This document shows positions 1-20,000 of a stretch of 20,000 nt of DNA, piece after piece. The first letter of the stretch is position 1; each line of letters opens with the position of its first letter. Origin of the DNA: Psammoneis japonica (taxonomy: Eukaryota); NCBI GenBank assembly GCA_008632985.1, contig QPGO01000067.1:380590-400589 (forward strand), given 5' to 3'. The translations under genes were made by a program, and so were the position numbers. The notes beneath the pieces were generated by a model that did not search any database, was not told where the DNA came from, and saw only the letters and a program-made list of their open reading frames with translations.

Positions 1-544
1 GACAGATGGGCTGCACTGGTGATGGGAGAGGACCTGCCCTTGCAGCCAGTGGCTGGTGCCAGCAATGGTGCGGAAGCAATTGCAGCCATGGCAACAACAC
101 AAACTGGTGCATGAGTGCAAATTGCAGCAAACAATGAAATCCAGCAGAACATGGAAAAAACAATGAGGCAAACTGCAAGGCAATTGTCAGTCAAGAACAA
201 ATGGCAGTTGCAACATTTGCTTTTAACACAATGATGCAAAGAGACAAAATGCAGAAAGACATTGCAGGTGAAGATGGTGGATTGAAAGTGACAAGAGATG
301 TGATGAAGAAACTGGGAGCAGCAAATGACAAAAAGGGTTGAGATTGAAGTTGTGGGCAAGAACATTTGCACTTCAAAGTGGGGTGCAATTTAAAATCGAA
401 AAGAAGCTCACAAACTCAATTGGTTCTCAACTGATGTTTGAAGAAAGACTTGGCTTGCAAGTTCACAACAATCTGAAATTGGAGTCAAGAAACACCCAGA
501 TTGTGACAGGTGGTCAGACACAGATTGTTGGCATCCCAGATGTC

Positions 545-1660
545 CTTTCACTCTGGAGCTTGGAAGTTCAAGTCTGCTGCTGTTGGAGACAAATTGACAC
601 GGGGCTGCAACACCATGACATCAACCTTGAAATGTCCAACCACAGTTCTCAAAGTGTTGCCTGGGGTCCACCAGAGATCCCCAATGGCTGGTGCTGTCAT
701 GGTTTTTTTTCACACTCTGGAGTTTGGAAGTTCGAGTCTGCCATTGACAGGCACACATGACATGGGGCCACAACACCTTCAAGATCAACCTTGCAATGTC
801 CAGCCACAGTTCCCACAGTGTCACCTTGGGTCCACCAGAAATCACCAGTGCCCTCAGCTTGCAGCTGTCAGGTTGGCTGGTGCTGTCATGGGGTCCTTTC
901 ACTCTGGAGTTTGGAAACTCAAGCATGCTGTTGTTGCGCACATTGTGGCATGGGGCCACAACACTCCAAGATCAACCTTGCAATGTCCAACTGCAGTTCT
1001 TAAAGTCACACCTGGGATCTGTCAGAGATCACCAACACCCTCAGCTTGCTGTTGTTGTCAGGTTGATTGGTGCTGTCATGGGGTTCTTTTACTCTGGAGT
1101 TTGGAAAAGTTCGTGCTGCTCCTGTTGGGGACAACATGACATGGGGCCACAACACTTCACGACCAATCTTGCAATGTCCAGCCACAGTTCTTGAGGACAC
1201 ACCCAGGGGGGCACCACCAGATTGGTTGGCACTGTCATGGGGCCCTTTCACTCTGGAGTTTGGCAGCTCAAGTGTCTGCTCCTGTTGGGGACAATGTGAC
1301 ATGATTGAGCAACAACGCCGCAACACCAACCTTGAAATGTCTGGCCACAGTTCTTTGAGCAAGTGTTGCCTGGGGTCTGCTGCCAGAGATCACAAATGCC
1401 AACAAGAGCTTGCTGTTGTCAGGTTGGTTGGCACTGCAATGAGGTCTTTTCATTCTGCTGGAGTCTGCCTTGGAAGTTTTCAAATCTGCCCCTGTTGGGG
1501 ACAAGGTTGCATGGGTCCACAGCACACTGCAACATCAACTTTTCAATGTCCAACCACAGTTCTTAAAGCACTGCCCTCAGCCTGCTGCAACTTGTTGGGT
1601 GGGTTGGTGCCATCATGGAGCCACTTTGCTCTGAGGCTGGGAAGCTCAAGTCTGCTTTGC
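545..1660. repeat. Degenerate tandem repeat, ~160-200 bp unit, ~6.5 copies
   Basis: The anchor ACTCTGGAG(T/C)TTGG recurs at 550, 714, 901, 1091 and 1250, and in degenerate form at ~1452 and ~1628. Other shared blocks are CATGGGGCCACAACAC, ATCAACCTTG(A/C)AATGTCCA.CCACAGTTC and GTCAGGTTGG.TGGTGCTGTCATGG. Confidence 0.9.
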
Positions 1661-1844
1661 TGTCTGTGCCAGCCCACTGGAAACAAGAGTGCACTGACAT
1701 GGGCAGCCATTTGTCAGGGAAAGCTGGTGTTGGCAGGAGGTGCTGCAGTTGCAGCACCCCCATGTCTCTCGGGCCTGCTGCTCTGGCTCTTTGCTGGCAC
1801 ATGTCCAGCACAATGGGTTGTTGTTGCAAGTGTGTGGGTTGGAT

Positions 1845-2089
1845 TGACAGAAAATGAAGATGACTGGGTGGAAGAAAACAATGACTCCTTGCTGCTGTCT
1901 AAACAGCAGATGAGTCTCCATGCAGAGACCGTCACAGGAGCCGAAAGACTGGTGTCGTGACATCGGTGCTGCTGTTGTCATTCTTGTGAGCCGTGTGGCT
2001 TGAAAGCAAACCACATCGCGCGACGCGTGCGGAACTAAGAGCACACACAATTGTGTGTGACAAACTAAAATCTTGTTCAAATCCTGTCA
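1845..2089 (-). repeat. 3' LTR (245 bp)
   Basis: Direct repeat of 8443-8689 with TG...CA ends and the terminal inverted repeat TGACAG/CTGTCA. On the minus strand it is preceded by the PPT. Confidence 0.96.
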
Positions 2090-3720
2090 CTCCCCAGTTT
2101 GCTTGAGGGGTCAACAGCGACAGATTCGAAGTCGGATTGGTTGAAAGCCTCGGGATCGAAGTTCCAAAACATTAGAGGACGAAGGAGGTTCCAGATTTGG
2201 GAGCAACCCCAGTGCTTGCTGAGGATGTCAGCCGGGTTGCGGGAGCCTTGGACAAAATGAAACTCGAGGAAACCGGAGGCAATCGCCTCACGCACACGAT
2301 GGAATGAGAGGGCGGTGTGTCGCGTGTGCAACTTGGAGTGCGGGATGGCAGCACTGTCCACAACCGACTTGTTGTCCCCAAACATGCAGCATGTTTCACG
2401 AATGGGAACGCCAAGGCAATGCAAAGTGATGCGCAGATCAATGATCTGCTCGACACACGTCCTTGCGGCAACAAACTCGGATCCATGCGTGGCAGTCTCG
2501 ACTGTTGCTTGTTTCTTAGAGAACCAATCAGCCGGAAACTTGTTGAGAAAATGGAGGATGCCGGTGACAGAGCGGCCAGTGAGCATGCAATGGAACAAGT
2601 TCGCATCGATGCAGTGCGTGGTGGTGACGAACTTGCCAAGCGGCTCGGGCGCATCTTGTGGGAGCAGCTCTTCTACCTCCCCATGCACGGATTGAGCCCA
2701 ATCGCACACGGGCTCAGGGAGGTCCGAACAGTCGGGCTCCTCGGTGTGCACTCGGAGGGTGCCATGACGCATCTTGGAGAGGAATCCGCAGATGCATTTG
2801 GCACGGTCTAGGTGGCCTTGACGGGGCACTGCACGGAAGCCAGACAGGGACATGACAGCTGCAGCAATGTCAATGCGACCCAGAGATGTGGCCCATTGCA
2901 GGGATCCAATCAAGGATTGGAGTTGGTGGATGCCATCCGGTTTGAGTGATTCAGAGGTGTCGAGCTCAGGGTGGTCACCCTTGTCAAGGGGTGAAAGCAC
3001 ATCAGTGCAGGGCTTCTCCCCAAAGAGGCATGTGCAGTTGTCAACCATGTGCTCAATGCACTTGCGGGGAGCAAGGCACAGGGTGCCGTCTGGGTCACAG
3101 GTGAAGTCGCAGCCAAGATGGAACTCCAATGGTCCAGCGCCCTTGAGCTTGAACTTGCACTTCTCCATGAGGGTGTCTGCAAAAGCCTGGGGGTCCTTCA
3201 TGGTGAAGGCCAGGTCGTCCACATGCACTGCCACGTGTTCGCAGTGGTCACCATTCCTGCGCAGCCAGATGTCGGGTTCAGCTTTGCATGGAAAGAAGCC
3301 TTTGGCACGCAAGCAATCGGCAAAGCGTTCATGCCATCTGAGGCCGGAGCTGCGGAGTCCGTACAAGGCCTTGTGGATGACAAGGATGTGTCCTTCCAGG
3401 TCGCCGAACTCGGGGCCTGCCACGATGCACAGTTTCTCCTTGGTCGCAGCTTCAAGGCAGGCATTCCCAATGTCAGTGGCCCAGGTCTCTAGTTTGTTGA
3501 GTTCGGCCAGGAAGATCATCATTGCAGGCCATGGAGAGACACCACTCCGGAACAGACACTGTCGACGGGCACGTCTGTGAGGTGTCCATCGGCAACAAGC
3601 CTTGCTTTGTGCCGTCCGTCATGTTTGACATCGCAGACGAGATGCACCCGGATCTTCTTGTGTCCCGATGGAGCACTGGAATCCTTGTGGTGTCCGCAGT
3701 TGTGGAAGACTTCGCACTCA
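2077..3720 (-). pseudogene. Reverse transcriptase (RVT_2 type) and RNase H part of pol
   Basis: KARLVADGH, DIGNA(Y>C)LEA, KALYGLRSSG, (Y>H)VDDL, SKKQATVETAT(Y>H)GSEF and NPADILSK. One frameshift near 3520. Confidence 0.93.
2090..2100 (-). other. Polypurine tract (plus-strand primer)
   Basis: The minus strand reads AAACTGGGGAG immediately before the TG of the 3' LTR. Confidence 0.8.
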
Positions 3721-6700
3721 TCAAGCTGAGTCATCTCGAGGTCCGTTGCGTCTCCCCACTTGCGTTTGCTGTTGCGCTCATCAAGGGCCATGGCATGCTT
3801 GTAGTCCCGTGGCACTTCATGCCCGCACTTGTGTCGTGGCGCAGTGCGAAAGGAGCGCAACTTGGCTTGGTTGGCCATGTGGAACAGCTTCTTCTGACTG
3901 AGTGCCATCTTGCAAAAACGTCTCCATCCTTTGGTTTCTAGAAGGCCGTGCTCACGCGCGTAGATGGCACAGGGGATGGGGTCGTCCTTGGCAATGATGG
4001 CAAGGGGTTCGGACGTGATCTCCCCATTCTCCCATTCAAGCATGACGTTGTAGCTTGAGCCTTTCCAAGAGGGATCATGGGGTTGCAATGGTCTTTCGTG
4101 CGATGCGATGTGTCGGAACTTCCAGAGAGTTGAGTCCTCGTCTTCTTGCTCAATGTGGTGCATGATGTCATTGCAGGCCAGGACTTCCTCGTGTTCGTCA
4201 TTGTTGATGGAGCAAATGAACTTGACCAGTTCGGGATTGCCTCTGATTTTCCAGTCGTGGTCCTCAACGGCTTTGATGGTGCAGGCTCTGTGGCGTTGTC
4301 CATCCTCTTGTGGCTTCATGAGGAAGGTGCGTCCTGTGACATCCTCGGGGTCAAAGACCGGCATTTTGGGCATCCTGATCGCCTCCCCATGTGGTGAATC
4401 TGGCAAATTCTCGGAGTCGTGGCGGGATTTAATGACAGGGTCAGCAGATTTCTCATCAGGAGGATCAAGACACAGGTTTGGAGCGGACGGATCACGGGTG
4501 GAGTGCACGTTGGAACGGTGGAGAATCTTCTGAGTGTTGTCAGAAAGAATCTTAAACATCATTTGGTGACCAATGTGTTCAGCCATGCCAACGAAGCGAC
4601 CACGTAATTCACGGGATTCGGGCAGCCAGTCAGAATCATCCAGGTGGCAGCAAACGGGTTCCCACCATTGAAAGCGGAGGAGTGGGCTGATGTCAGGAGT
4701 AGAGCCGGACAGCACCTCAGTGGGGGCATGCCAGTGGAGCTTGGCGGATGCCGTGTGGTTGAGCACAAAACACACGCACATCAGGGCGAGCAGCCAGGTG
4801 CAAGCCGGGGACCCGAAGTGATCCATGACAGTGTTGGCCATGGTCTTCACAGTTTGGTGGCGGCATTCAGCAAAATTCTGATGCTGGTGGTGAGGCTCGC
4901 TTTGCCAACTAGAGATGAAGAGGGCACGAAGGATGCCAAGAACCTTGTTGATGAGCTCAACCTGAGCACGGTCGCTGATGAGCTTGGACGGGGCACCACG
5001 ATTGCGAATGTTGTCTTGAGGGTGTTGACAAATTCTTTGTCAGTTTTGGTGCCACACACGTCAGTGACGAGAGATTCTGTGCCTGCAAAGAGCTGGGCGC
5101 TGGTGCAACCAGAGTCAATGGCAGGGGTGTCAGAGCAGACCGTGTCAGTGGCAACGGGTTCATCACATCGGTGGACATTGAGAGCCAGGTTGGGTGATTT
5201 GCACGCCTTTTTCAGGTGCGTGCTGGCTGGCATGTGGGCGCACTGCATCGTGCAATCAAAAGTGTGGCAGGTGGTGTCCTTCAGGAGAAAGCCAAAGCAG
5301 GGGCAGAGGGACTCAAAGTCGGGATCCTTGGGATTGAGTTCACGCTCATGGCATTCATAGAAGAAATCAGATGTCGGGAGCAGGTGATCATCAAGGACGG
5401 AGTCTGCAAGCATGGCGTTGTTGATGACATGGTGGTGATGATGGTCACCGAACTCATCGAAGAGGTTGGCAGTCAGGTTGTCTTGGAGGTCAGACACAGC
5501 ATCACACCATGTCTCATTGTCCGTGAACTGGTGGTCAAGGACAGATGGATCCCATGTGTCATCACCAGTGAGAATGACATGCGGCAGAGTGTCCCATTCG
5601 GCATCGGTGCATGGGCGCATGGCGATGTGCGGGAGGCCGGCTTCATTGTCGATGGGAATGATGCATCCATCAACAGTGGTGACACACTGCAGACCATTGG
5701 GGACCTTGATGGACCAATTGTTGACATCGTGTTTGTGCCACTCGAGTTGGCCGCAAGAGTGCATCGTCTTCCCCTTTCCAGTGCAGGCACACTGGTGAAG
5801 GATGGCAATGGCAGGGCCGCATTGCGTGTGGATGACACCACCGGCAGTGACGGGTGGGGATGTTGACCAGTTGATGATCATCAACACCTTGGACGTCAAC
5901 CTGGCAACCAGCGCGGGCAATGACACAAACATCGAGAGCACCTTTGTGAGTGGACTTGTGGGTCGAGGCAGAGCAGACGACATTGTGGTTGTTGATGCGA
6001 CGGCATTGATGGCTGTTGATCTCAATGTCAGTGTCATTGGGCTTTGCATCGGAGCAGGAGGAAGGTGCAGATCCGGGCGGTTTCTGCCAGAACGGGTGGA
6101 AGGAGGCCGTTCAGGTGCCAGGAGACATTGCAAGTTGCCGGGTGGCAGGGGCTTGCGCCTGGTGAGATGAGCCAGAATGGGGTCAGCATTGGCTGCATCG
6201 GCTGCAGCGTCGGATGGTGCGAGTTCCGATGCAAGATCATGGATGTTGGCGGACAAGTGACATCGCCGTCACTGCCAAGATGGAGGTCATGTGGGTTGAC
6301 CATCGTTGAGTCATGGCAGTTGCCGGTGTGGGCATTGCGTGAGCCAAGAATGATGGCCTTGGTGGACTGGGGCAAGGTGTCCCAAATGTGCTGATGGTCC
6401 AGCAGAATGCGACGCCATTGTTCCCTGGTGAGGGAGTTGCCGCGGGTCTGTGCAGCACAAGCTTGGATGACGTCAACATCACTGTCGATGTCAAAGAATG
6501 CATCATTGTCATGGTCGTCGGGAACCAGGTCATGTTCGTAGATGGCACGGCGTGGGGCGCGAGGAGTGGTCTTGGGGGTGAACGTGCTGTCGTGCTGTGC
6601 TGCAGCAGAAAGCAGAAGTCCACAGTGCTCCTCGTAAGAGAGACCCTTTCCATTCTGCGTGCGGAACTGATCAGCTTGATTCTTTACTGAACGGAGCTCT

Positions 6701-8427
6701 TCGATGGGATGAACGGCATTCTCAAGCATGACACATTTCTGGCCAGCAGAGAAATGGTCCGCACCTGGGACAAGAGCTTCACACTTGCGGAGCTGGTCCT
6801 GCCAGTGAAGCATGAAGGCATGGGTGGATCCCTTCCAGGTGCCATCACCAAGGCGAGCAGTGGCGAGGTGCGTGAGAAGGGTCGAGGACTCCAGGGATGC
6901 ACGAGCAGAAGTGAGGGCGCACTTGGAAAGGTCGCGATGCACCGCTTGAGCATCAGAGGAGCTGACATGTTGACGAACAAGCACCTTGCCTTTGTCATTC
7001 TGCAAGATCCGTTCGAATGTGGCGAACATGCACTTCTGTTGTTCATCAAACAGGGCCTTGTCCTCAGCTGCAGAGGGCTTGCACTTCGGATCAAGAACAA
7101 GTTCGACGTCCTGGGAGGGGCCTGTGCGATGATGGAGGTGTGCCACGTGTGCCACTGTTTGTCTGACTTGAGAGTCGCGAAGGTGAGTGGGTCACGTTTG
7201 ATGCCTCGTTTAAAGTCACACACAGGGTCACGTGGTTTGGGTGGCAAAGAGCCAGGGGTGGGAGCAGATGGCGCTGCACCCATGGAGAGGGATGCTGCAC
7301 ACTCAGGACCAAGACGACAGTCAGTGAACTCCTCGTGAGTGAACAATTGAGGGTTGTTGCTGACATCCGCCCGCCGTGCACTTTTGCCATGTACAGGCTA
7401 ATCAGCGCAGCTGTCTGTGCTTTGTAACCACGTGGCAAGGGCATCTGATTGGTGCCATCGTTGTGCACAAGGGCATCCAGTTGCGTCAGAGTAAAAGCAA
7501 AAAGGTCCTGATGCGAATTGGTTCCATCAATGTTGAGAGCGGAGCACAATGGACTGTCTGCGGCTTGATTCAGAACAGTGCCTAGAATGTGCTCGAGGCC
7601 ATCAATTTGTTGTTGCCTGGTGAGAACCATGTTGCAACTGGGTGAATGTCGGAACTGGCTGGAGTCGGAGGGTGAGCTTGAAACAACTTGAAACTTGACT
7701 TGAATCTTGACTTGATGTCTTGAACTATCTGGAGAGTCAGAAGCCACCGGGCTGTGACATCCCATTCATAGTTAAGTGCCAAGCTTCCCATCTGGTCCAC
7801 AGAGTTGTGCCGGCACGTCGAGCCCGCAGCTGGCAACGCTTTGGGTTGCCTGAGAGCAGAGCAACGGGTTAAAAACCCCTGCTGACAAGCTGACTGGAGG
7901 TGGACAAGACCTCTGAACCGTTCTCATTTTGTGTCGGTTGGATGACCCGATCAGGCCGGCCAAATTTGGCGCTGTGGAGGGACGAACAAACGTGGGAAAT
8001 GCACCCTCGCCCCAACGTGGGCTGCAGTCATGAACTGCTTCCTCTCACAGTTGTCCTCATGGACCTTGTGGGACTGTAGAAGACCAGCAATCTGGTGTGG
8101 ATGCAAGGTGGTAGACTTGGTGTGCACAGAGCAGGGCCAGAGTCAAGGGTTCATGTCGTGTGCACGTGGACGCGAGCGGATGGATTGGTGGGATCTGCCA
8201 TGAGGAATCCGGAATCTCGGATGCTTGAGAATTTGGGAATTCCTGGTCAAACAAATGTCCGTTGAATGAACACATCCAACGATGGGAGGCATTGGACAAA
8301 TCCAAATGTGCAGATTTAATCCAGCACCCAGCAGTGAAGAAGGCAGATGTGTGCTTCCACCACCAACGGTGCGCGTCGTCGAAAAAATTTCTCGATGACG
8401 ATGATGAATGCTCAATGACAACAAAGA

Positions 8428-8442
8428 GCAAGACTGTTAATC
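8428..8442 (-). other. Primer-binding site, apparently complementary to the anticodon arm of tRNA-Asn(GUU)
   Basis: The plus strand reads GCAAGACTGTTAATC directly against the LTR. GA-CTGTTAA-TC is the anticodon stem-loop core of tRNA-Asn. There is no canonical TGG-starting PBS. Confidence 0.65.
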
Positions 8443-8689
8443 TGACAGAAAATGAAGATGACTGGGTGGAAGAAAACAACAACTCCTTGCTGTGCTGTCT
8501 AAATGGCAGATGAGTCTCTGTGCAGAGACCGTCACAGGAGCCGAAAGACTGGTGTCGTGACATCGGTGCTGCTGTCATCATTCTTGTGAGCCGTGTGGCT
8601 TGAAAGCAAACTACATCGCGTGACACGCACGGAACCAAGAGCACACATGATCATGTGTGATGAACTAAAATCTTGTTTAAATCCTGTCA
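8443..8689 (-). repeat. 5' LTR (247 bp)
   Basis: Direct repeat of 1845-2089. Manual alignment gives 21 transitions and one 2-bp indel. On the minus strand it is followed by the PBS. Confidence 0.96.
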
Positions 8690-8694
8690 TGGAT

Positions 8695-10690
8695 GTTGCA
8701 AAGATCAGCTGCATGACAGCAGCCCAACACAAACAACCAAACTGTGTGGGCTGGCACAGATGTGACAATTTCATTCTTGACAAGAGCCGATTGAGGCCAC
8801 AAAAACTCCTGGCATGAATCTTCTTGTTTGAAAACAGCTGTGCTGCATCTGATTGAAACAACATTCAACATCTGGAGCTGCTGAAAAATGAGAACACACA
8901 AGCAACATGCTTTGGCAATGAAGACCAATGAAGCTGTTCATTTGAGTTGGTTCAAACAATTGGAAACCTGGGAGCAGATTCCACCAACAAAACAACACAA
9001 AAACACAGGAGGATGCATCCAAGCAACACACAAACAATGATGACATTGCAAGGGCACCAACACCCAGAACTCTGCAAATGCCAACAAAAAATGACACAGG
9101 AGAGGCAAGAGGTCAGAAGTGCAACAGAGGAGCAGGCAGCTTCCAGCAACAAAAAACAACAACAAACTGATGCCTTCCTTTTGCACTTTTTTCATTTCTT
9201 GAAACTTGGACAAGTTGACAAAAATGGCCAAGGATGAGAAACAAAGTTCTGCAACATTGCACACAAGTGAGCAGAAAGAGTGGCATTGTGCCACAATTGC
9301 AAAAGAAAACACACCTGGCTGACAACTTCTCTGCTGTCTTTTCCCATGGATTTTGCCTTCACATCTCACAATGAAAAGCTGTCACAAAAATTGACTCTGA
9401 CAGGACAGCAGCTTCAAGAACAGAGGGAGCAAAGGCAGCAGAATGGCAGCATAGAATGAGAGCATGAGAGCATGCACCAAATGGCAAACATTGCCAGGGT
9501 GGAAAGCAAGCGTCATTGGAAACCAAAGCTGCAAAGTGCACGCCACCAGCTGACAAGCAAAATGCCAAAATTGTTGGCAGGCTCCAACCAAACAGCGACA
9601 ATCAGTCAGATCAACTTGGGTGTGTGTGTGCACAGAAATGAACCATGTTTCATTCATTGTGGTCCCCTGCTTTGCCAACTCAGTTGAGGATTGGCAATGC
9701 TTCATCATTCACAGTTGTTGCCCTGTGGTTGCTGAGTTCAAAATGAGTCTTGTCAAGAGCCCATTTTCTGTGAAACCAAATTTTCTTGAGTCTTGTTTCC
9801 TGCTTCACCAATTTAGTGAATTGTTCAAATTGATTGCTCACCATGAATGAGCACTTGACAAGAACACAGGCTTCTTGTCAAGCAAGTTTCAACTGTGTGA
9901 ACAAGAGCGGCTGTGTTTTCCAGACACGTGTGTGGTGTGTGCTTGCACACATCAACACGTCAACAATCTCAAATCAATGTGAGTGTTGGTGGTGCCACTG
10001 ACAACAACAAGCATTGTTGTTGCTTTCATCCTTGAGCACTTCCCCAATCTCCTTGGCTTTTGGGCTCTTGTGTGAGCACAGGTGACTGGCCAAAACAGAA
10101 GCACCGCAAGAGCAGTGCCGCCACACCAGAGCATTTGAGGCATGAGCTGATGGAGACTCCCAAATGGGACCCATTCACTGGTGATAAAGCCAACCAAACT
10201 TGTGCTTGATGCGCTTGGAATGAAGACAATTGCACCCTTGTCTCATTGTTTGTGATGCAGACATTCTTGAGGACCGGAAAACGTGAGAAGTGCGGTGCCT
10301 CTCGAGACAGTTTCGTCATTTGCTCGGCTCATTGTAAACTAAAACATCAATCACAACAATTTCAGCTGGAATCTTGTCAAGTTTTGATGCAACATGCTTT
10401 GCTTGGCAATGGACAACTCCCACATTCTTGGCTTGGAGCGACGAGTTTCATCACATTGTGCCTTTCCAAAGTGTGCGAGCATTCCATCAACACTCAGACA
10501 CAGTCAGTTTTTTAATGATGACTCAGCGAGAAGATTTTTGAACACAATGCTGGTCAGCATGGTAAGGTCTTCAAGGACAAAGGCACTCATCTTCCATCAT
10601 GATCTGGAATCGGTCATGACATGCTTTGCCGCGAGCTGATGCAGGAATGAAGAATCATCGACTGAAAATAAAAATGTCAGTCGTGCATGC
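8695..10690. repeat. Decayed, unidentified repeat/TE-derived DNA; probably continuous with 1-1844 before the copia insertion
   Basis: Same TpA and CpG depletion as 1-1844. The TSD joins the two flanks. No convincing protein motif is readable. Confidence 0.45.
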
Positions 10691-10895
10691 AGGCGCTATC
10701 GGGCGTAGTTTTCTACGCAGGTAGTACGGCGCAGAAGAGGGTACTCGAGCGAACGCCTGTTTCTTTCTTTCGCCCCTCACAAAAAGTTCTCTTTCCGCAC
10801 AATTTATTATTCCAACAAATTATTACTGTTTAGAAAGAGCACACAACCAAGGCACGAGGATAGAAGAAACTTCCTTTATACGATAGTCGCTCATA

Positions 10896-11774
10896 ATGGC
10901 GTCCCTAACCCAAGATTTACCGGATACCACCGAAAGGAAGAACTCGCGTTGGAGGTTCGGACGCTCACAAAATACGGCCGGACTCCATTGCAACACGTGC
11001 GGGGTTCAAACACACAAGCGCAATCGCTTTTCACTGCTTCGTCGCAAATTGGTACCTCTTACCATAGAGAACAGAGTCTTGAATGGACGGTGCCTTTTAT
11101 GTACTGAAGGACCAATGGAGAATGAAATTGCTGAGCCAGACACTGGAACGACCCATGGGAGAGAAGATGACATTAATTTCGAAACCGATCGCTTGGTTGC
11201 CAGCCTGGCAGGCCTTGGTCTACTTCTAACAATCCTTGTCGACGATGAAGAAAATACCGTCAATGACGTTGAGTCTCATGTTGGAATTGAAGAAATTTGT
11301 GAGGAATCACTTGCCGGCGATGTTGTTGAAAACGATGAGGAGAAACCCAACACCACAGACGACGAAATGAAATAATCCTTGGATCCAACCAAGTGTTCCA
11401 TATGCTTATGCGGTGAGGAAGATTTCTCATCCAAAGAAGAGAATTGCGTGGCGACCATTGATGGCTGCAGACATCGGTTTTGTTTCGAGTGCATCAAAGA
11501 GTGGAGTGCTCATGAAAACACCTGCCCGCTTTGCAAGACCCGATTCACGAGGATTTCTACGTTGCGAAAGCACTCGTCCATGTCAGATACAACTGAGATT
11601 GTGCCCCGTAGGGATCAAAGACCAGCCGACGATGACTTGGTTCCGACATTCATCGCTGATGCTTTGAGAGAAATTCTCGTGCAGCTTCTCATGGTTGCGG
11701 AGGAAGAGGATTCTGACGACGACGACGATTCTGTAGCAGCTCAAAGGGCATGGGAAGACTACTTTGGTCCGTAA
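10896..11774 (+). CDS. RING-HC (C3HC4) protein, putative E3 ubiquitin ligase, with an N-terminal CxxC...CxxC domain; interrupted by one in-frame TAA at 11373-11375
   Basis: ORFs 10896-11375 and 11379-11774 share a frame. The RING reads CSIC-x16-C-x-H-x2-C-x2-C-x10-C-x2-C (GCRHRFCFECIKEWSAHENTCPLCK), with an acidic linker and tail. Confidence 0.75.
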
Positions 11775-12196
11775 TCATCATTTGAATCCTATTTTGAATT
11801 CGTCGCCGCACCTGATCGCACTGTTGGTTGGTCTCGATGCATCATGCATCATTGCGTCACTTGCGTCATGCGTGTCTCTCCGATTAGAATCCGACTACAT
11901 AAGTAAAGCCTTGCAGCCTCGTCTCGAGTTCTGCAATCCTCGCATGAACCAGTAGAACACTAACAGAACACTTACGAATACCGTTTCTGCATAATCAACG
12001 AGCTAGCGTACCGGTAGGCAATGAAGGTTAGGTTTATTTGAAAAAACTACATATTTTTTTTTTTTGACGGAGTGGGCCTGTCGGTTTCTGTTTTCATTGT
12101 CGTTGCGGTAGATTTACTATTGACTTTCTTTGTAGATTAGACAATACAATCTGGTAAGATGATCTTCAGATACGAAATAATTTTCCACGACTCCGA

Positions 12197-13354
12197 ATGA
12201 GGCGCGAACTCTGCGCTGCCGCGATCAGGCGCGAATTCATCAGTCGGAGTCACAACCAATTGTTGCTGACACCCGTTGTCTCTGGTACAAAAGCGCAGAA
12301 GAAACACAAGCAACTCCGGAAGCAACAGGGAACGATGAACACGTTGCCAAATAGGTCCATGAATGGCGAAGGCTTTGGCAAAGTCCCAAACAATGCCATG
12401 CCGAACCGTTGGTGGAAAAAGTATAAGCGACAGATGCGATGCAGAAATAATTTTGCAGTCCCGAGTCATGCAAAGAGATTCTCAGCTTTTCCGAATAGAT
12501 TGAATTCCATGAGAATCGAGGGTTCTACCACCGAAGGCTTGTGTCAGTGTCAGTCTTGCCATCCTGAGCTCCAACAACATGATCAGAAAAAAAAGTCTTG
12601 TACAGCTGTAGAAAAGAAACCATCAAGTGATAGAGAGGAGCCGAGCTCGAGCCAGAACGCTGAAACGTGTAGCATATGTAGAGTCGGTGATTTATCCGCT
12701 TATGACAATGCCGCTGCGATCAATGGCTGCCCGCATCTCTTTTGTTTCAAGTGTATTGATGAATGGTCCAAACATGAGAACAGCTGTCCGCTCTGCAAGA
12801 AGCGGTTCACTTGCATTTTCTATCTCTATGCAGGACAAAAGACGAGGGCTTCTGCTTCACCCACCAACGCCCGACTCATTTGCAAACACGTGGAGAGTCG
12901 AAGTCAAGCTCCACCAAGTAACGAACAAGTGTTCATGGATTGGTCTGACCACTTTCACGTTGAAGATGAGGGTGAAAGGCGCGAACGAGATGGCACAGGT
13001 TCAGAGAGCGAAGCGGAAACAAGTTGGAGTCCCTCTGCTCCGGTTGCAGCAGCCGATGAAGATTCAGATCAAGACTCGACGCCATTTGAGCCACCGCCGG
13101 CACCTCCTCAAATTTCGATTGAGGACGAAGATGAAGAGTACTCGAACCTGAATGCGGCTTTTCCCCACCTCCTGGGACTCGAGCCAGAGGAGAAGGAGGA
13201 GGAGCAGGAGCAGGAGTCTCCGCGAGAAGACGGTTCATACGAAGTTGATCATTCGGAGGAGAATCAAGTCGTTTACACTCCTTTTATTACCAGCATCACA
13301 TACATTAGTGACAGTGAAGACACTTCCCATCTTTTGGACGAAGATTTCAGGTGA
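12197..13354 (+). CDS. RING-HC (C3HC4) protein, putative E3 ubiquitin ligase, with a long acidic C-terminus (start may be ATG 12335)
   Basis: 385-aa ORF containing CSICRVGDLSAYDNAAAINGCPHLFCFKCIDEWSKHENSCPLCKKRF at ~12668-12808. Confidence 0.85.
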   Translation: MRRELCAAAIRREFISRSHNQLLLTPVVSGTKAQKKHKQLRKQQGTMNTLPNRSMNGEGFGKVPNNAMPNRWWKKYKRQMRCRNNFAVPSHAKRFSAFPNRLNSMRIEGSTTEGLCQCQSCHPELQQHDQKKKSCTAVEKKPSSDREEPSSSQNAETCSICRVGDLSAYDNAAAINGCPHLFCFKCIDEWSKHENSCPLCKKRFTCIFYLYAGQKTRASASPTNARLICKHVESRSQAPPSNEQVFMDWSDHFHVEDEGERRERDGTGSESEAETSWSPSAPVAAADEDSDQDSTPFEPPPAPPQISIEDEDEEYSNLNAAFPHLLGLEPEEKEEEQEQESPREDGSYEVDHSEENQVVYTPFITSITYISDSEDTSHLLDEDFR

Positions 13355-14045
13355 CACAGATCAGAGGAAGGACCCTGAAGCATCGTTGTTTAAATGCGAG
13401 GCTACATACAAATACACGTCGGAAGACTTTTGCATTTTTGATAGAATACATGCACCATTGACAGATTATACATTGTCCGTAATAAATTTCTTATACGTTT
13501 CTGTGTCTAATTCCCGTTTCGCTCCCCCCACTCTCTAGTAGAAATGCCTAGAGTTGACTTTATTAACGAAACATTCGAAGGCAACGTTTGGATCACATGA
13601 TTTGATCAACATCCGAGCTACTCTCGAGAGAAGTTTCCGTTAGAACATTGAGAGAAAGAGTTATCAGCATCACCTCCAGTTACACGACATTCACCAGGCT
13701 ATGTCGCCTTACAGACAGAGTTCTCCCGTTCTGGCCGAGCTTACCGAAGGGAGGAACATTTGTTTGAGAGTGGTAACTTTGATCAAAATGCGAGCTTCTG
13801 AAGTCTAGAAAGCAGTCTCGGTCGGGACATTGAGCAAGAGCTAACAACATGAGCGGTACTCTACCACGTCCAACTACCTGTAGCTCCAAAAAACATGTCA
13901 TCAGTGTTCCCTCATTTGAGCAGTTTGCGTCCTTACGTACAGTGGATTTCTCTACCGGTGGAGTATACTGATGACAACAAAATGGTTCTAGAGTTTTAAG
14001 ATATTTGGTACCCCACAGAATGAAAATTCAATCCGTTACTGGCTA

Positions 14046-15684
14046 TTACAACTGAGACAAGACTTCGTCAGCAATAGCAATTGTCTTTTCAATGTCTTCA
14101 TCTGTGTGTGCCAACGACATGAAACCAGCCTCGTACATGGAAGGAGCAAGATAGACACCACGTTCCAACATCATGCGGTGCCACTTTCCAAACTTTTCTC
14201 CGTCCGACTCGGAGGCTTGAGAAAAGTTCTTGACGGGCCCTTCGGTAAAGAAGAATCCAAACATTCCTCCGGCAACACCACCGGAAATGGCGTGGCCGTG
14301 CTTTTCTGCGGCAGCGGTAATTCCGTCGACAAGCTTTTGTGCCTTGCGCTCGAGTTCATCATACGTGCCTTCTTCTTTGAGTTTCTTCAGAGTCTCAATA
14401 CCGGCAGTCATGGCAAGGGGATTACCGGAAAGAGTACCGGCTTGGTACATTGGACCGGCGGGAGCAACCATCTCCATGATATCCTTGCGGCCACCGTAGG
14501 CACCAACGGGAAGGCCTCCACCAATAACCTTACCCATGGTGGTGACATCTGGTGTGATTCCAAAGTATTCTTGGGCACCACCATATGAGACACGGAATCC
14601 AGTCATGACTTCGTCAAAGACAAGGAGAGCGCCGTTTTCCTTGGTCAATTCACGGATTCCCTCCAAAAACTCTTGGTCGGGCTTGATGAAACCCGAGTTT
14701 CCAACGACGGGTTCCAAAATGACAGCGGCGATCTCGTCCTTGTTGTCCTCAAAGATTTTCTTGACAGACTCGAGATTGTTGTATTCGGCACAGTACGTGG
14801 CCTGTGTGGCCGAGGCGGGAACACCGGGAGAGTCGGGAAGACCAAGCGTGGCAACACCGGATCCAGCTTGGACCAAAAAGGAATCGGCGTGTCCGTGGTA
14901 GCATCCCTCAAACTTGATTACCTTTTCGCGTCCGGTAAAGGCACGGACAAGACGGATCATTCCCATGCACGCTTCGGTTCCCGAGTTGGTGAATCGCACC
15001 ATTTCGACAGACGGAACGGCGTCAATTACCATTTTGGCCAATTCGTTTTCGAGTGGGCAAGGAGCACCAAAGGATGTGCCCTTTTCCATAGTGGCAGCAA
15101 CAGCCTTGAGTACAGTGTCATCAGCGTGTCCGAGAATGGCCGGTCCCCATGTTCCAACGTAGTCAATGTATTTGTTGTCATCCACGTCCCAAGCATAGGC
15201 GCCCTTGACGTGATCAAAAACGACGGGGTTTCCTCCGACACTCTTGAACGCACGGACCGGAGACGACACACCACCGGGCATGAGCTGAATATAATAGAAG
15301 TGGAAAAGATAAAGAGTGAGAGAAGGTGAGAATGATTTTTTTCGCGTGATTCTTTTGATTTCTCGACAGGCGCCAACGATGAATCTAGCCGACCAAAGAT
15401 TTTCACGGTAGCCAGAGGAACCGGTATGTTTCCAATGGAATTTTAAGCTTTGCAAAGAACGCAAAACAACTCTCTTCCACCTCGCCGTTCTTAATTTTCT
15501 CGACACTCTCACATGATAACACTCACGTTTTGAGCTTCGGCAAAGATTTCTTCACTCTTGGCAAAGTATAAGTTTCCGTCTCGACGGCGCTCATTTTCAG
15601 GCCATTGTTGGAACGAGTACCAAAAGCTGGTGCAAAGGCGGAGGCCGAGCCAACCAAGAGTGCGGATGCGATTGTCAACTTCAT
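14046..15684 (-). CDS. hemL: Glutamate-1-semialdehyde 2,1-aminomutase (GSA-AT), plastid-targeted; exons 15527-15684 and 14046-15284
   Basis: Motifs [40 protein letters not shown], the PLP lysine in TMGKVIGGG, and [10 protein letters not shown]. Exon 1 reads [19 protein letters not shown] (diatom ASAFAP motif). The GTGAGT...TTCAG intron is phase 0. Exon 1 is 158 nt, one base short at ~15563. Confidence 0.97.
15285..15526 (-). other. Spliceosomal intron of the GSA-AT gene (242 bp)
   Basis: Donor GTGAGT follows ...EAQN. A pyrimidine-rich tract and acceptor TTCAG precede LMPGG. Splicing gives the conserved [21 protein letters not shown]. Confidence 0.9.
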
Positions 15685-16276
15685 GGTAATATCTAAACCG
15701 TATTGTTGTTGTCAACCACAGAAATGGATCGGATAGTGGTCTGATGCGACGAGTGAGATGAAGTGTTGCCAAGTTGAAGTCGAAACAACGTGCCAACATA
15801 CGTACGCATGGAAGGAATCCTTCAATTTCAGAACGCAAATGATCTTCCTTCCACGTGTACGGTGGGGATGTAGAAACTAGTATTAATAGTACGCATCCCA
15901 CGTACTGCCAATCAGAGTCTGAGAGGCAATCTTTTTGTTGAAGTTCCTTTTGCGACCCGCGAAAAAGCTGTCGGATTCTTTCAGTCAAGTCAGTCGTTGA
16001 CATGAAAAGGGATCAGGCGGCTGTGCTCCAAAACACTGATTTTCCACGTACGCACAACATACCGGTACTACATCATACCATGGCGACGTTGCGTCGTTTC
16101 CACTGCCGCTGTCAGGTCGCTAAAAATGGGTGAGTCGCATGAGATATTGTTTGTAATTACCTTTACTGTCAACCGTGGGGATGACAACTGCCTATAGCCT
16201 ACTCAGCTTCATCTTGATCTCTGCAGTGACATGCCATCCCTCGTCTACTAGACTTTCATACAGATCAACAAGAATC

Positions 16277-17267
16277 ATGCGACAATTCTTACTCATACTA
16301 TTATACACTCGAGCCGTCCGCTGCACTTTTGCTTTGAGCAGCAGCTACTTATTTCAAAAAGCCCGACCGGAAATCCTCAATCTGCTGAATCATCCGCTGC
16401 AACTCCAGTTGGCGACAGGCGATCTTTCCTTGGGCGCCTTTCAAAGATTAGTTTTGGATCGCAAAGCCATTTTGGAGGGATTAATGCAAGCAACAACAAC
16501 GGGAGGAGAACTGCAGGCAAGCGTGCAAGCCGAATTGGATCGGCACGACAAGGTCCATCAGGAATGGTTGGAGACGGCCAAAGAATCTGGCAAATCAATA
16601 GTCGTGCCAGATATAGAGTGTTTACGTGTGGCGGCCATCACCTCAACATTGATTGCCCACAAGATCAGCAAATTAGTTCTAGCGCTCTCGCTCTGAAATC
16701 ACTGCTGATTTCCAATGGATTGGTGGGTGCTGCTGCCGTCCTTCAATGCCATGGGTTTTGTTGTCGTGCACTCTTGCAGGCCTTTCAAACGTGCTGGAAC
16801 GACAAGAAAATACGATTGAACTCAATCCAGCCTGTCATGGTTGGCTAAAGAGTCATGCGGAGCAATGGTCAGAATTGGGAGAACTCTGTAGTGCTCAACT
16901 GCTGGCACAACAAGATGGTGATTCCGAAGGATACACGGTTTGTCTTTCCATGCTTTACAATTGGATTGACGCCGAAGCGGCAACGACTGGAATTCGTGCC
17001 GATCTAAACGATCCAACCCTTTCAGCATTGCTAGATGAATTGGAACGGTTGGAACCGGGGTATGCTTCACAACGCGATAAACATCAATCCTTTGTGGCAG
17101 ATTTAACCGGCGTTAAGACGGGACAAGCGCTTCAGCAAAGGGCCCTTGACAAGGCGGAAAAAGCTGCAGCCTATCTGGCCGCCAAGAAAAACAAAAATGC
17201 CAAGTTGGATGCAGCACAGGCTTATTTAGCCGCCAAGAAGAAGAAAGAGTCCGAGGGCGATTCATAG
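16277..17267 (+). CDS. Uncharacterised protein with a signal-peptide-like start, TenA/THI-4-like helices and an internal CCHC zinc knuckle; two apparent 1-bp frameshifts
   Basis: Three overlapping ORFs join if one T (~16622) and one A (~16810) are restored in homopolymers. The joined product contains LLNHPLQLQLATGDLSLGAFQRL, ECFTCGGHHLNIDCP, NPACHGWLKSHAE and a duplicated AAxAYLAAKK tail. Confidence 0.7.
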
Positions 17268-17789
17268 CAATGCCATTAAGATGCAAAGAGGAGACAGATC
17301 GCACACGAGATCGCACAGCGAAGTGGCCACCGTGATGATTCTAAGCAACACCGCCACTGTTCAGTAGCTGCATTTCGAAACACTCAAAGCAACCAGGCTG
17401 TGCAAGGATCGCAAGGGCAGCGACAGGGTTGCCGCCGAATTCTACCAAACTCGCATTCTTGTGCTTGAGTGAAGATTTTCTCGATGGCATTTGAACCCAT
17501 CGACTGGAGCTCTGCTTGTTGCAATCTGAAATCCTCAGCAATTCATATTCTTGATGGTTCAGACCTAATTCGGCTTTAAACTTCCCTCTTCTCGGAAATG
17601 TCATTGACAAACGATGGCAGCACCACATCATTGTGTTTGTCCGTATTCTACCCGCACATTCACGTTTCTTTCTAGGAATAGTCTAGCAGCTTTCCAGTGG
17701 GATTCATTCGATTACTATCAGTAGCAAGACGTGAGAGTACATTTAGTCATTAGTTACGTTGGACGACTCGCTCTGCTCTGCGAGTGACT

Positions 17790-17990
17790 GTGTAGGGCCC
17801 CAGCAACTCTAGCTCGCGGTCGCCACTCTAGCTCTCTCCACTCTCTCTAGAGAGGGCCTTCCGGCAGCTAGCTAGCTACTTCTACTCTCTCTAGAGTAGA
17901 GAGCTAGAAGTAGTAGTCTCTACTCTAGAGTAGGGCCCTATCCTGCCTATGCCTAGAAGTATAATACTAGACTCTAACTAGACTAACAGC
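17790..17990. repeat. CTAG/CTCT-rich low-complexity tract with nested palindromes
   Basis: CTCTCTAGAGAG (~17843), AGCTAGCTAGCT (~17866), the CTACTTCTA...TAGAAGTAG inverted repeat (~17876-17913), CTACTCTAGAGTAG (17920-17933) and TAGGGCCCTA (17931-17940). Confidence 0.85.
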
Positions 17991-18228
17991 GAAGAGGCAC
18001 AGGCTCCGAATTTCTAAACCGGCGCCGTATGCAGCTGGTTCGAGACTAAGAGATGATTCCAGATTCCTCCTTCTCCCGTAGAAATTAACGTACGTAGTTT
18101 CTACGAATGCTTTGTACCAACGATCTTCTTGGAACTCCCTGACACAGACGACAGACGCTGAAACAGACCATGGCCTCGAGCCGTTCCTGACTCTCGCCTT
18201 ATTCTTTCTATCTAATCACAACATCACA

Positions 18229-19576
18229 ATGGCAGACGAAGCCCGCGCCATGCTGGATGCCCTCATGGGTGGTGACCGCAACGCCCCGCTACCCCAAGGC
18301 TCCGACGGTCGAGCTCCCCGTCGCACCAAGCGCTCGTGCTTTGATCGAGACATTTGTCCACTCTATTGCGCTTGGGGCGTCGACGTGTACGAGTTGTTTC
18401 GCAACACCAAATCCGACACGCTTGTCGGTATCAATCCCAATGTCGTCGATCCGGCCGCACACGAGGAATTCAAAAACTTGCCTCCGGTGGAACAAGAGCG
18501 TCTCGGATACAAGTCCATGTTGTTTCGTAAATTACAAGAGCTCGTGCAAAAGTGTGATCGAACCGTCAATCGCAACAAGGAAAAGCTGCGACAAGAAAAT
18601 GCCAAGCAAGCGCAGAGTCGGGGTGGACAGGATTTTGTGCAGCATGTCGATGAAGCGGCCGTGACGCAATTGGCGTCTGCCATGGTGCGTTTTGAATATC
18701 TGGAAGAGGACGTCATGGAGCTTGTCGGCAAGTTGCAAGAGATTCAAAAAACACAAGACGAACTCGAGGAGAAATTTGTGAATCTCTTGAAGAAGAAACA
18801 AGCATCCGAAAAAGATGAAGAAACAAAACAGGATGCAAAGGAAACGGAGAAGCCAAGGCAGAGCAAGTCACCGAGAGTGAGCATGCTTCGAAACCGCCAG
18901 AAGAAGCGGCTGCTACAGAAGAAAAGACGAAACGAAACAAGAAGACAAATCGACGAATGGCGAAAACAAGGAGGATGCAGACAAGACCAAGGATGGCACT
19001 GACGATGACAAGCTCGAAATGGAATTGCAGGAAGCGCTGGAAAAGACTCGCATTGAAAAACAGCACTTGCTTGTCGATCTCAAACTCAAGATCGGTCAGT
19101 ACCAACCCCTCAAGGAATCCATCCAGAGCCAACGCTATCAATTGGAGTATGTCAAGTCGGACATTACGTCAGACAAGACGGTTTGTGAAGTGTCTGGAAA
19201 CTTTATGAGTTCGCGCGATGCCGATGAACGCATTGCGGCGCATTATGCGGGCAAGCAATACGTGGGATGGAAGTTGGTGCGAGACAAGCTTGAAGAAATG
19301 CAAAAGGAATATGGGCGTTATGGACCACCAGGAGGCGGACGCCCGCCGCCTCCTCGAGACGATTACCGAAATCGTGGTCGGTATCATCGATCTCGGTCGA
19401 GAGAACGAGCTCGTGACCGCGGTCGCGGACCAAGTCCACCAAGGTGGGAACGTGGAGGAGGTGGTGGTGGTTACCGTGGCGGTGGTGGCTATGGAGGTGG
19501 CGGCGGCGGCGGTGACTGGAGGAGAGACCGTGGTGGCGGTGGTAGAAGGGATAGCGGTCGTCGTCATTGGAGGTAA
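18229..19576 (+). CDS. LUC7: LUC7-like U1 snRNP-associated splicing factor; two apparent 1-bp frameshifts in an E/K-rich insert
   Basis: N-terminal MADEARAMLDALMGGDRN, a coiled coil, VCEVSGNFMSSRDADERIAAHYAGKQYVGW (the LUC7 ZnF2 region) and an RS/RG-rich tail. Adding one A at ~18843 and one at ~18924 restores a single frame. Confidence 0.88.
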
Positions 19577-20000
19577 AGTGTTGCTTGCATGGGGTGAGTG
19601 ATATGGACCTAGAGATGACGGAGTATTTTTTTATGCCACACAACATGTTATTCTCCTCGTTGCATAGCAAATCGTAGCAGCTTGGAGAGAAGGAGTGGTA
19701 CTGAAAGAGGAAACGAATATTTTGACGGCGCGAAGACCATTGACATGAGAGCTCTGTAAGTAAAAAGTGAGTAAAACATTTAGTACATTTGCGTTCTAGA
19801 TTCCTTGCTTGCAGCAGACGACACGAAAGCAACAGGGGCGGTTGCATTGCTTTGGACCGCCCTACGTACCCATTTGCTTGTGTTCTAATGTGAGTATACC
19901 TATTGATTTGACACTCGTGCAAGAAACACTAATTGCTTCCGTTAGAACGACTTGGTCCAGTTTGGGTTGCCACCCAACAAAACGATTGTTCGTGTGCGAA

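Follow-up and report, generated by a model that had tools for sequence, protein, structure and literature searches.

The question raised by this locus is why the first 10,690 positions of a 20,000-nucleotide stretch of the Psammoneis japonica genome (assembly GCA_008632985.1, contig QPGO01000067.1, positions 380,590 to 400,589; hereafter the window) are almost devoid of the dinucleotide TA, whereas the host genes that follow are not. The depleted block is built around a Ty1/copia retrotransposon with long terminal repeats (LTRs), which occupies 1845–8689 on the minus strand and was inserted within an older repeat. We find that TA was turned into TG and CA after the element had integrated. We consider it probable that a localized, TpA-specific A:T→G:C process acted at the DNA level on this silenced selfish DNA, and that it is of the same kind as the process reported in the chlorarachniophyte Bigelowiella natans (Mettrop et al., bioRxiv 10.64898/2026.01.13.699255).

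The original prediction, made from the letters of this DNA, described a scarcity of TA confined to a transposon block and put the number of TA in 2100–8440 at about 30 by eye; the count there is 33. Across 1–10690, TA occurs 53 times, an observed/expected ratio (o/e) of 0.09, and CG 360 times (0.51), while TG (1155; 1.62) and CA (1076; 1.74) are in excess and near equal, as products spread over both strands. The corresponding values in 10691–20000 are 340 TA (0.55), 545 CG (1.01), 618 TG (1.11) and 692 CA (1.14), so the scarcity is borne out, as is its confinement, with one boundary falling in the window. At the two ends of the block, the TA o/e is 0.06 in 1–2100 and 0.07 in 8440–10690. Expressed as density, the copia element has 5.8 TA per kb and its flanks 3.4, versus 48.9 per kb in 77 related elements, corresponding to losses of about 88% and 93%; the non-copia DNA on either side (1–1844 and 8695–10669) is depleted as much as the element or more. 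CpG is low as well (o/e 0.16 in 1–2100, 0.66 in 2100–8440 and 0.30 in 8440–10690, versus 1.01 in 10691–20000), and part of the TG and CA excess therefore comes from CpG decay. The TpA depletion itself is confirmed as a real signature.

The coding sequence records what TA became. We placed 80 full-length relatives (52–70% identical) on the window by tblastn and took as conserved those columns in which at least 30 relatives aligned and at least 80% of them agreed, which gave 727 codon positions, 599 of them unchanged in the window. Conserved Trp and Phe are largely kept (22 of 23 and 28 of 31). Conserved Tyr is kept at only 4 of 37 columns, with Cys at 21, His at 9 and other residues at 3. Thus 30 of the 33 changed Tyr codons read Cys (TGY) or His (CAY), as proposed for A:T>G:C changes at TpA that give both TpG and CpA. 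Conserved Arg, at which 34 of 51 columns are kept and 6 have become Cys, 8 His and 1 Gln, bears the signature of CpG change. The same shift is visible in overall composition: the median of 120 relatives listed is 3.9% Tyr and 0.95% Cys, and three open reading frames (ORFs) of the window contain 0.2–0.6% Tyr and 3.6–5.3% Cys. All of the motifs on which the original prediction was argued (HVDD, GNACLEA, TATHGSEF, HLVCDVK, DTVCSDT, WGCSQ and QLFAGTES) are present in the translations, and the catalytic motif reads HVDD where the consensus of the relatives has AVYVDDL. Coding capacity has been lost as it envisaged, in that 30 of 37 conserved Tyr, the catalytic Tyr of YVDD among them, are now Cys or His. 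Because Tyr is conserved in the relatives, the ancestral state was TA and Cys and His are not native to the element; intact relatives carry Tyr at these positions. The best blastn identity of the window among 80 related loci is 65–69%.

The LTR pair dates these changes. Both LTRs of a single insertion are copies of one template and are identical at the start. Those of this element differ at 21 substituted columns over 245 aligned, plus one 2-bp indel, and all 21 substitutions fall within pyrimidine–purine (YpR) dinucleotides: eight TG/CA doublets, three TA/CA pairs, one CG/TG and one CG/CA. Unchanged in both LTRs are two TA/TA and nine CG/CG pairs, and outside YpR dinucleotides 0 of 117 columns differ. 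As only 2 of 22 CpG copies changed, CpG cannot be the source of the eight discordant doublets, which are ancestral TA that turned into TG in one LTR and CA in the other. There are 11 TA-derived differences in all, every one consisting of transitions. Since the LTRs differ only at YpR sites, the change struck the DNA after integration. If hidden concordant sites are assumed to equal discordant sites in number, at least 0.83 of the TA in each LTR copy changed after insertion, equivalent to 1.8 hits per site and to nearly the whole of the 88% loss. In this one LTR pair, the rate of change at TA is about 19 times that at CpG, per site, and exceeds the upper bound for other sites by a factor of at least 140. 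Ultraviolet TpA photoproducts and GC-biased gene conversion were also considered as causes and dropped, the LTR pair being unchanged at every other site.

Two explanations place the origin of the signature before integration. According to the first, this copia lineage is TA-poor and has Cys and His at these sites by nature, which would account for the composition itself and nothing more. Given relatives with 3.9% Tyr, change at 33 of 37 conserved Tyr including that of the catalytic YVDD, a frame interrupted in at least four places and LTRs that place the loss after insertion, we regard its probability as practically negligible. The second invokes ADAR-like A-to-I editing of the retrotransposon transcript, or editing of its complementary DNA (cDNA), fixed by reverse transcription and integration. 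Such editing would fit a target that is a retroelement, and the process in this block would share with APOBEC and ADAR systems a deaminase-type hypermutation that restricts retroelements and shows a 5′-neighbour preference. ADARs, however, are known from metazoans, and animal APOBEC and ADAR enzymes act on cDNA or RNA before integration, so that their changes are strand-biased and common to both LTRs and the flanks are untouched. Here, LTRs derived from one template differ at 11 TA-derived sites, including the eight opposite-strand doublets, both products are present, both strands are affected and the non-copia flanks are depleted as much or more. Opposite-strand changes in the two LTRs together with this depletion of the flanks exclude pre-integration RNA or cDNA editing as the main cause, and we hold the explanation most unlikely, even with the ADAR preference for a 5′ U that is mentioned in the Discussion of the B. 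natans preprint (10.64898/2026.01.13.699255).

The letters themselves recur in a sequencing run, X1, taken from the same sample as the assembly with its library type unrecorded, from which contigs were built of exact 31-mers at a depth of about 56. These contigs reproduce the depleted stretches 894–1873, 8664–8986, 9369–9656 and 9849–15291 with 0–6 other letters; the last is a single contig of 5457 nucleotides, at depth 56, that crosses the boundary of the depleted block with 6 other letters. They bear on the suggestion that real but modified TA was misread as TG or CA by base calling or assembly. The window differs from the contig spanning 9849–15291 by 14 gaps in 5.4 kb, and some family contigs, about a fifth to a half of the depth there, have an extra base at the frame breaks near 5017 and 7117, which together suggest an indel-prone long-read assembly. 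This speaks for the suggestion. Against it stand the exact 31-mer contigs, the fixed differences of TG versus CA between the LTRs, which are unlike the systematic miscall of one motif, and the finding of the same state in an unrelated metagenome contig and in proteins from other public contigs. An artefact of this kind is scarcely credible.

That metagenome contig, L065, is one of 80 related loci taken from metagenomes, which we examined as 1152 one-kb windows. A second copia copy, 65–66% identical, it contains 3 TA in 2766 bp (positions 1–2766; TA o/e 0.02; CG o/e 0.44) with no TTAA left, and its reverse transcriptase has 1 Tyr, 15 Cys and 22 His. L065 thus represents a more saturated state than the window copy. 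The other 79 loci have a TA o/e of 0.33–1.06, and one-kb windows below 0.25 occur in L065 only; L013 (0.33) and L017 (0.44) are ambiguous, lacking a clear TG and CA excess, and were left uncounted. Of 240 relatives' proteins listed, P0326 and P0275 carry Cys or His at 10 conserved Tyr positions each, out of 17 and 22 aligned, with conserved Arg intact at 21 of 23 and 27 of 28 positions. Their sequences look like intermediate stages, and the loss of Tyr with Arg intact indicates that TA loss is independent of CpG decay.

We then compared the limits of the two depletions within the window. A maximum-likelihood change point falls at 10,669 for TA density and at 10,275 for CpG density, so that CpG recovers about 400 bp ahead of TA and the domains of methylation decay and of TpA hypermutation have separate edges. 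TA depletion ends within about 30 bp (10,670–10,697), and the next host ORF (10887–11375) lies some 200 bp further downstream; past the boundary, TAs stand at 10697, 10706 and 10714 and then every few bases. Decay of 5-methylcytosine (5mC) at CpG resembles TA loss in yielding TG and CA in the same block, where Cys or His has replaced 14 of 51 conserved Arg. It cannot remove TA, however, proceeds about 19 times more slowly per site and has its own domain end at about 10,275 versus 10,669. CpG methylation decay thus accompanies the TA loss on this DNA at a lower rate and does not explain it.

A link between the two processes could in principle be made by error-prone repair synthesis in methylated heterochromatin, in which Pol eta-type WA errors follow the processing of deaminated-5mC mismatches and no dedicated editor is needed. 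Pol eta is prone to A>G errors at WA, preferentially at TA, and CpG decay is evident in the same block, both in the CG o/e of 0.16–0.66 and in the replacement of 15 of 51 conserved Arg by Cys, His or Gln. However, the LTR differences include neither transversions nor ApA changes (0 of 117 non-YpR columns), and the per-site loss of TA outpaces that of CpG about 19-fold. In P0326 and P0275, roughly half of the conserved Tyr are gone while Arg is preserved, and about 400 bp separate the end of the CpG domain from that of the TA domain. We consider this route very unlikely.

Copy number bears on the original prediction's name for the process, a repeat-targeted 'reverse RIP' (RIP, repeat-induced point mutation). 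As a guide to abundance we used the summed word depth of contigs at least 90% alike, which is not a copy number. It is 5,600–45,000 over the copia element and 742–1325 over 1–1334; in three bins of 8672–10672 it falls to 354, to 186 and then to 56 over 10006–10672, the level of unique host sequence. The copia family is therefore abundant, and the last approximately 660 bp of the depleted block lack close copies, although 10006–10672 may be an old diverged repeat. Depletion at single-copy depth does not support the label 'repeat-induced', and in B. natans the target of the same process is, as the preprint describes it, single copy (10.64898/2026.01.13.699255). Differences between family contigs and the window are mainly transitions in balanced numbers (A>G 61, G>A 54, C>T 67, T>C 55; transversions 49), as expected of independently mutated sisters and not of a large unmutated fraction that retains TA.

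Fungal RIP is still an instructive parallel, in that it is DNA-level hypermutation of integrated transposons that is dinucleotide-specific, confined to transitions, active on both strands and sharply limited near the element. It runs the other way: under RIP, CpA becomes TpA and stop codons arise, whereas here TpA is destroyed and TAA and TAG are erased. A TpA o/e of 0.09 and a polarity of TA>TG/CA contradict the RIP signature of TpA enrichment and new stops.

The surviving TA are not a random remainder. We pooled both orientations of each xTAy tetranucleotide and measured survival in the copia element with the 77 relatives as baseline. Survival is 0 for ATAT, ATAC/GTAT and ATAA/TTAT, 0.07 for GTAC and for ATAG/CTAT, 0.14 for GTAA/TTAC, 0.19 for CTAC/GTAG, 0.29 for CTAA/TTAG, 0.39 for CTAG and 0.54 for TTAA. 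In the older flanks, TTAA survival reaches 0.93 versus the host baseline, and TTAA makes up 13 of the 53 surviving TA. Per strand, this hierarchy would correspond either to a 3′-neighbour order of T>C>G>>A for the altered A or to the mirror order for the base before T. Tyr codons lean weakly to the 3′-neighbour reading, with 21 Cys versus 9 His (P ~0.04), and the share of His is 8 of 17 after A or G versus 1 of 13 after C or T (Fisher P 0.04); the LTR doublets, by construction, carry no directional signal. No strand-coordinated tracts were seen along the element, where the order of Cys and His makes 15 runs versus about 13.6 expected (hand count), or in the eight LTR doublets, which switch state 5 times in 7 steps. 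This absence fits many separate hits over time and not one processive sweep.

Which chemistry could act in this way? An adenine deaminase is one candidate. TadA base editors and ADAT2/3 offer a model of a possible mechanism, with a chemistry that gives A>G in DNA and a 5′ T preference, although the natural TadA and ADAT2/3 enzymes work on transfer RNA (tRNA) loops or single strands and are not known to follow the context order described above. We tentatively propose a DNA adenine deaminase of TadA or ADAT2 type, which would convert A to inosine that is read as G. Alternatively, the same TpA process might operate through a mutagenic base modification in heterochromatin, either thymine oxidation or glucosylation (5-hydroxymethyluracil (5hmU), base-J type, by TET or JBP) or a modification of adenine, with mispairing leading to T>C. 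The products are strand-symmetric, so that T>C is indistinguishable from A>G; a chromatin mark would be compatible with the domain-like limits; and dinoflagellates carry 5hmU in place of thymine, preferentially at TpA and TpC. On the other side, 5hmU pairs well with A, the near-pure transitions (0 of 117 other columns) would require very specific mispairing, and the contigs read ordinary bases and give no evidence of modification in the window. A modified base is accordingly the less likely of the two chemistries, and on its own we judge it unlikely.

The original prediction knew of no described pathway of this kind, and in this it is out of date, because the same process has been measured in mutation-accumulation lines of B. 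natans. There, the preprint reports, 231 of 302 new nuclear mutations fell in integrated giant-virus and virophage regions; 230 of these 231 were A>G or T>C, and every such one was at TpA (10.64898/2026.01.13.699255). With a rate of about 6e-7 per site per generation, the process affected only some of the lines, a subset of the TpA-poor coding sequences was enriched in reverse transcriptase and DDE domains, and the authors propose an ADAT2-like DNA adenine deaminase, their Discussion citing DNA editing by amphioxus ADAT2 (10.64898/2026.01.13.699255). From the preprint's figures of 211 mutations, 6169 TpA and 3132 generations we compute a rate of about 1e-5 per TpA per generation. A fresh insertion would then reach saturation within a few hundred thousand generations, well before background differences accumulate, which matches the LTR pair.

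Both cases show A:T>G:C change only at TpA, with both products, limited to foreign or selfish DNA in an otherwise normal nuclear genome. They differ in host (a chlorarachniophyte of the Rhizaria versus a diatom, a stramenopile), in target (integrated virus versus an LTR retrotransposon and its surrounding repeat), in extent (Rho 0.45 in the region of nucleocytoplasmic large DNA virus (NCLDV) origin in B. natans versus an end stage with TA o/e 0.09 here) and in the kind of evidence, which was measured across generations there and is inferred from sequence here. TpA hypermutation is thus already known, having been first described in 2026 in a chlorarachniophyte, and is found here in a diatom on an LTR retrotransposon. 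New here are the LTR-based proof of post-integration timing, the near-saturated end state, and the flank-context hierarchy together with the offset from the CpG-decay domain; the TTAA-resistant context, the LTR timing and the offset do not appear in the abstract, Results or Discussion of the preprint. Our literature searches found no report of TpA hypermutation in diatoms. A mutation-accumulation study of P. tricornutum (PMC6604790) reports a GC>AT bias and, in its accessible part, no such hotspot.

The observed pattern, polarity, post-integration timing, domain limits and context dependence all enter the account that we prefer, a TpA-specific process on integrated DNA, and we infer as its agent a chromatin- or small-RNA-guided enzyme. 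On this account, the copia element entered an older repeat in a diatom genome whose TA content was normal. The whole silenced block would then have been struck site by site on both DNA strands, with A:T→G:C change almost only at 5′-TA-3′, such that an altered A on the top strand gave TG and an altered A on the bottom strand gave CA. The process is near saturation, with flanking bases setting the rate (A-TA and TA-T erased, TTAA largely spared), and its outcome is a dead element in which Tyr has become Cys or His, YVDD has become HVDD, and TAA and TAG stops have been erased and not created. Diatoms and chlorarachniophytes may even have in common a dedicated chromatin- or small-RNA-guided defence whose effector is a natural 5′-TA-3′ A:T→G:C DNA editor of transposons and viruses, a proposal that we put forward with some hesitation.

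Several points weigh against this account. The evidence comprises a single window with one LTR pair and one boundary; the rate was estimated from that 245-bp pair, with no mutation observed in progress. X1, whose support comes from accurate reads, shares its sample with the assembly and is thus not fully independent of it. Clear hypermutation is seen in only 1 of 80 related environmental loci, and the process is therefore not general among such elements. Both strand signals are weak (P ~0.04 each), and on sequence grounds A and T would be equally eligible as the attacked base of the TA pair, the two being inseparable. Finally, natural TadA and ADAT2 enzymes act in the context U-A-C/G/A, which has no obvious match to the context order found here.

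If the account is true, TpA-directed hypermutation is not peculiar to one chlorarachniophyte and also shapes transposons in diatoms, a group of major importance to marine primary production. Comparisons between genomes that carry the signature and genomes that lack it would then bear directly on where the process occurs and which enzyme performs it. The hypermutation points to a natural activity making motif-defined A:T>G:C changes in chromosomal DNA. Should the proposal of a shared defence system hold too, that system would be an ancient counterpart of RIP across the stramenopiles, alveolates and Rhizaria (SAR), acting in the reverse direction, and would supply new TA-specific adenine base editors. 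It would work orders of magnitude faster than 5mC decay and kill by missense, through loss of Tyr, while erasing TAA and TAG stops. There are practical consequences as well. Dating by LTR divergence breaks down in such genomes, as this pair is 8.6% divergent (21/245) with no background substitution, and family copies can diverge by more than 5–10% without being old. Gene callers will list long Tyr-less, Cys- and His-rich 'proteins' from dead elements.

The features of the window are collected in the following table.

Features of the 20,000-nucleotide window and the basis of each assignment
Feature	Position	Strand	Basis or remark
Left part of older repeat	1–1844		TA- and CpG-depleted; continues beyond window start
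Tandem array in older repeat, 164–187-bp units	549–1203		TRF rows 549–847 and 685–1203
Target-site duplication TGGAT, left copy	1840–1844		Flank ends in TGGAT, followed by LTR start TGACAG
3′ LTR, 245 bp, TGACAG...CTGTCA	1845–2089	-	Direct repeats D4/D8 and pairwise alignment
Reverse transcriptase/RNase H open frame, 513 amino acids stop-to-stop, 1 Tyr	2077–3618	-	Pfam RVT_2, E 1.1e-13
Copia polyprotein remains, five frame segments, Tyr nearly erased	2146–7364	-	tblastn with 1859-amino-acid relative P0004
5′ LTR, 247 bp	8443–8689	-	Direct repeats and pairwise alignment
Target-site duplication TGGAT, right copy	8690–8694		Right flank TGGATGTTGC
Right part of older sequence	8695–10669		TA-depleted to ~10,669; CpG-poor only to ~10,275
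Boundary of hypermutated domain	10670–10697		TA count 7 in 8700–10668 versus 84 in 10669–12999
Host gene region, internal control	10691–20000		Pfam-matched genes; TA o/e 0.55, CG o/e 1.01
RING-finger ORF	12158–13354	+	Pfam
Glutamate-1-semialdehyde aminomutase	14046–15551	-	Pfam
LUC7	18082–19576	+	Pfam

Membership of the element in the copia group is indicated by its RVT_2 reverse transcriptase, LTRs that begin with TG and end with CA, a 5-bp target duplication and colinearity with 1859-amino-acid relatives. The high-scoring segment pairs of P0004 run colinearly through 7364–7119, 7125–6178, 6217–5015, 5018–3522 and 3522–2146, and five colinear frame segments mean that the polyprotein is interrupted at least four times. 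The frame described in the original prediction as a single-Tyr reverse transcriptase/RNase H ORF does have one Tyr; its length had been given as 481 amino acids. Pfam detected neither an integrase nor a protease domain in the copia element, and no family for the ORFs 3519–5039, 4847–6268, 6034–7191, 7091–7765, 8057–8650, 507–1139, 1067–1960 and 10887–11375. In the older repeat, degenerate copies of the tandem unit (direct repeat families D1–D7), 60–87% alike, extend to about 1650. On the other side of the element, 8690–10700 contains no recognizable coding frame, and its frames look non-coding.

Some family contigs, amounting to about a sixth to half of the depth, have one extra base at ~5017, ~6084, ~6257, ~7117 and ~7370, and the polyprotein frame is broken at two of these places, ~5017 and ~7117. 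Some of the frameshifts of this copia copy may therefore be assembly indel errors and not true deletions. Two further runs, X2 and X3, leave the copia interior without cover, from which we draw nothing on expression. Run X3 (0.16 million letters, contigs of 33–59 nucleotides) matches only the LTRs, at 1903–1949, 2068–2113, 8503–8535 and 8581–8620; its library type is unrecorded, and it looks like a small-RNA library matching LTRs, which would fit RNA-guided silencing.

In the host region, the best named homologues of the aminomutase come from Helicotheca, Fistulifera, Nitzschia and Phaeodactylum at 86–91% identity (other matches reach 92%), which identifies the host as a diatom and not Bigelowiella; the Protein Atlas confirmed the aminomutase family without pointing to a taxon. 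At three neighbouring sites there, 16247, 16259 and 16483, the window has TA where X1 or X2 contigs have TG or CA, and these three differences may be allelic TpA changes outside the transposon block.

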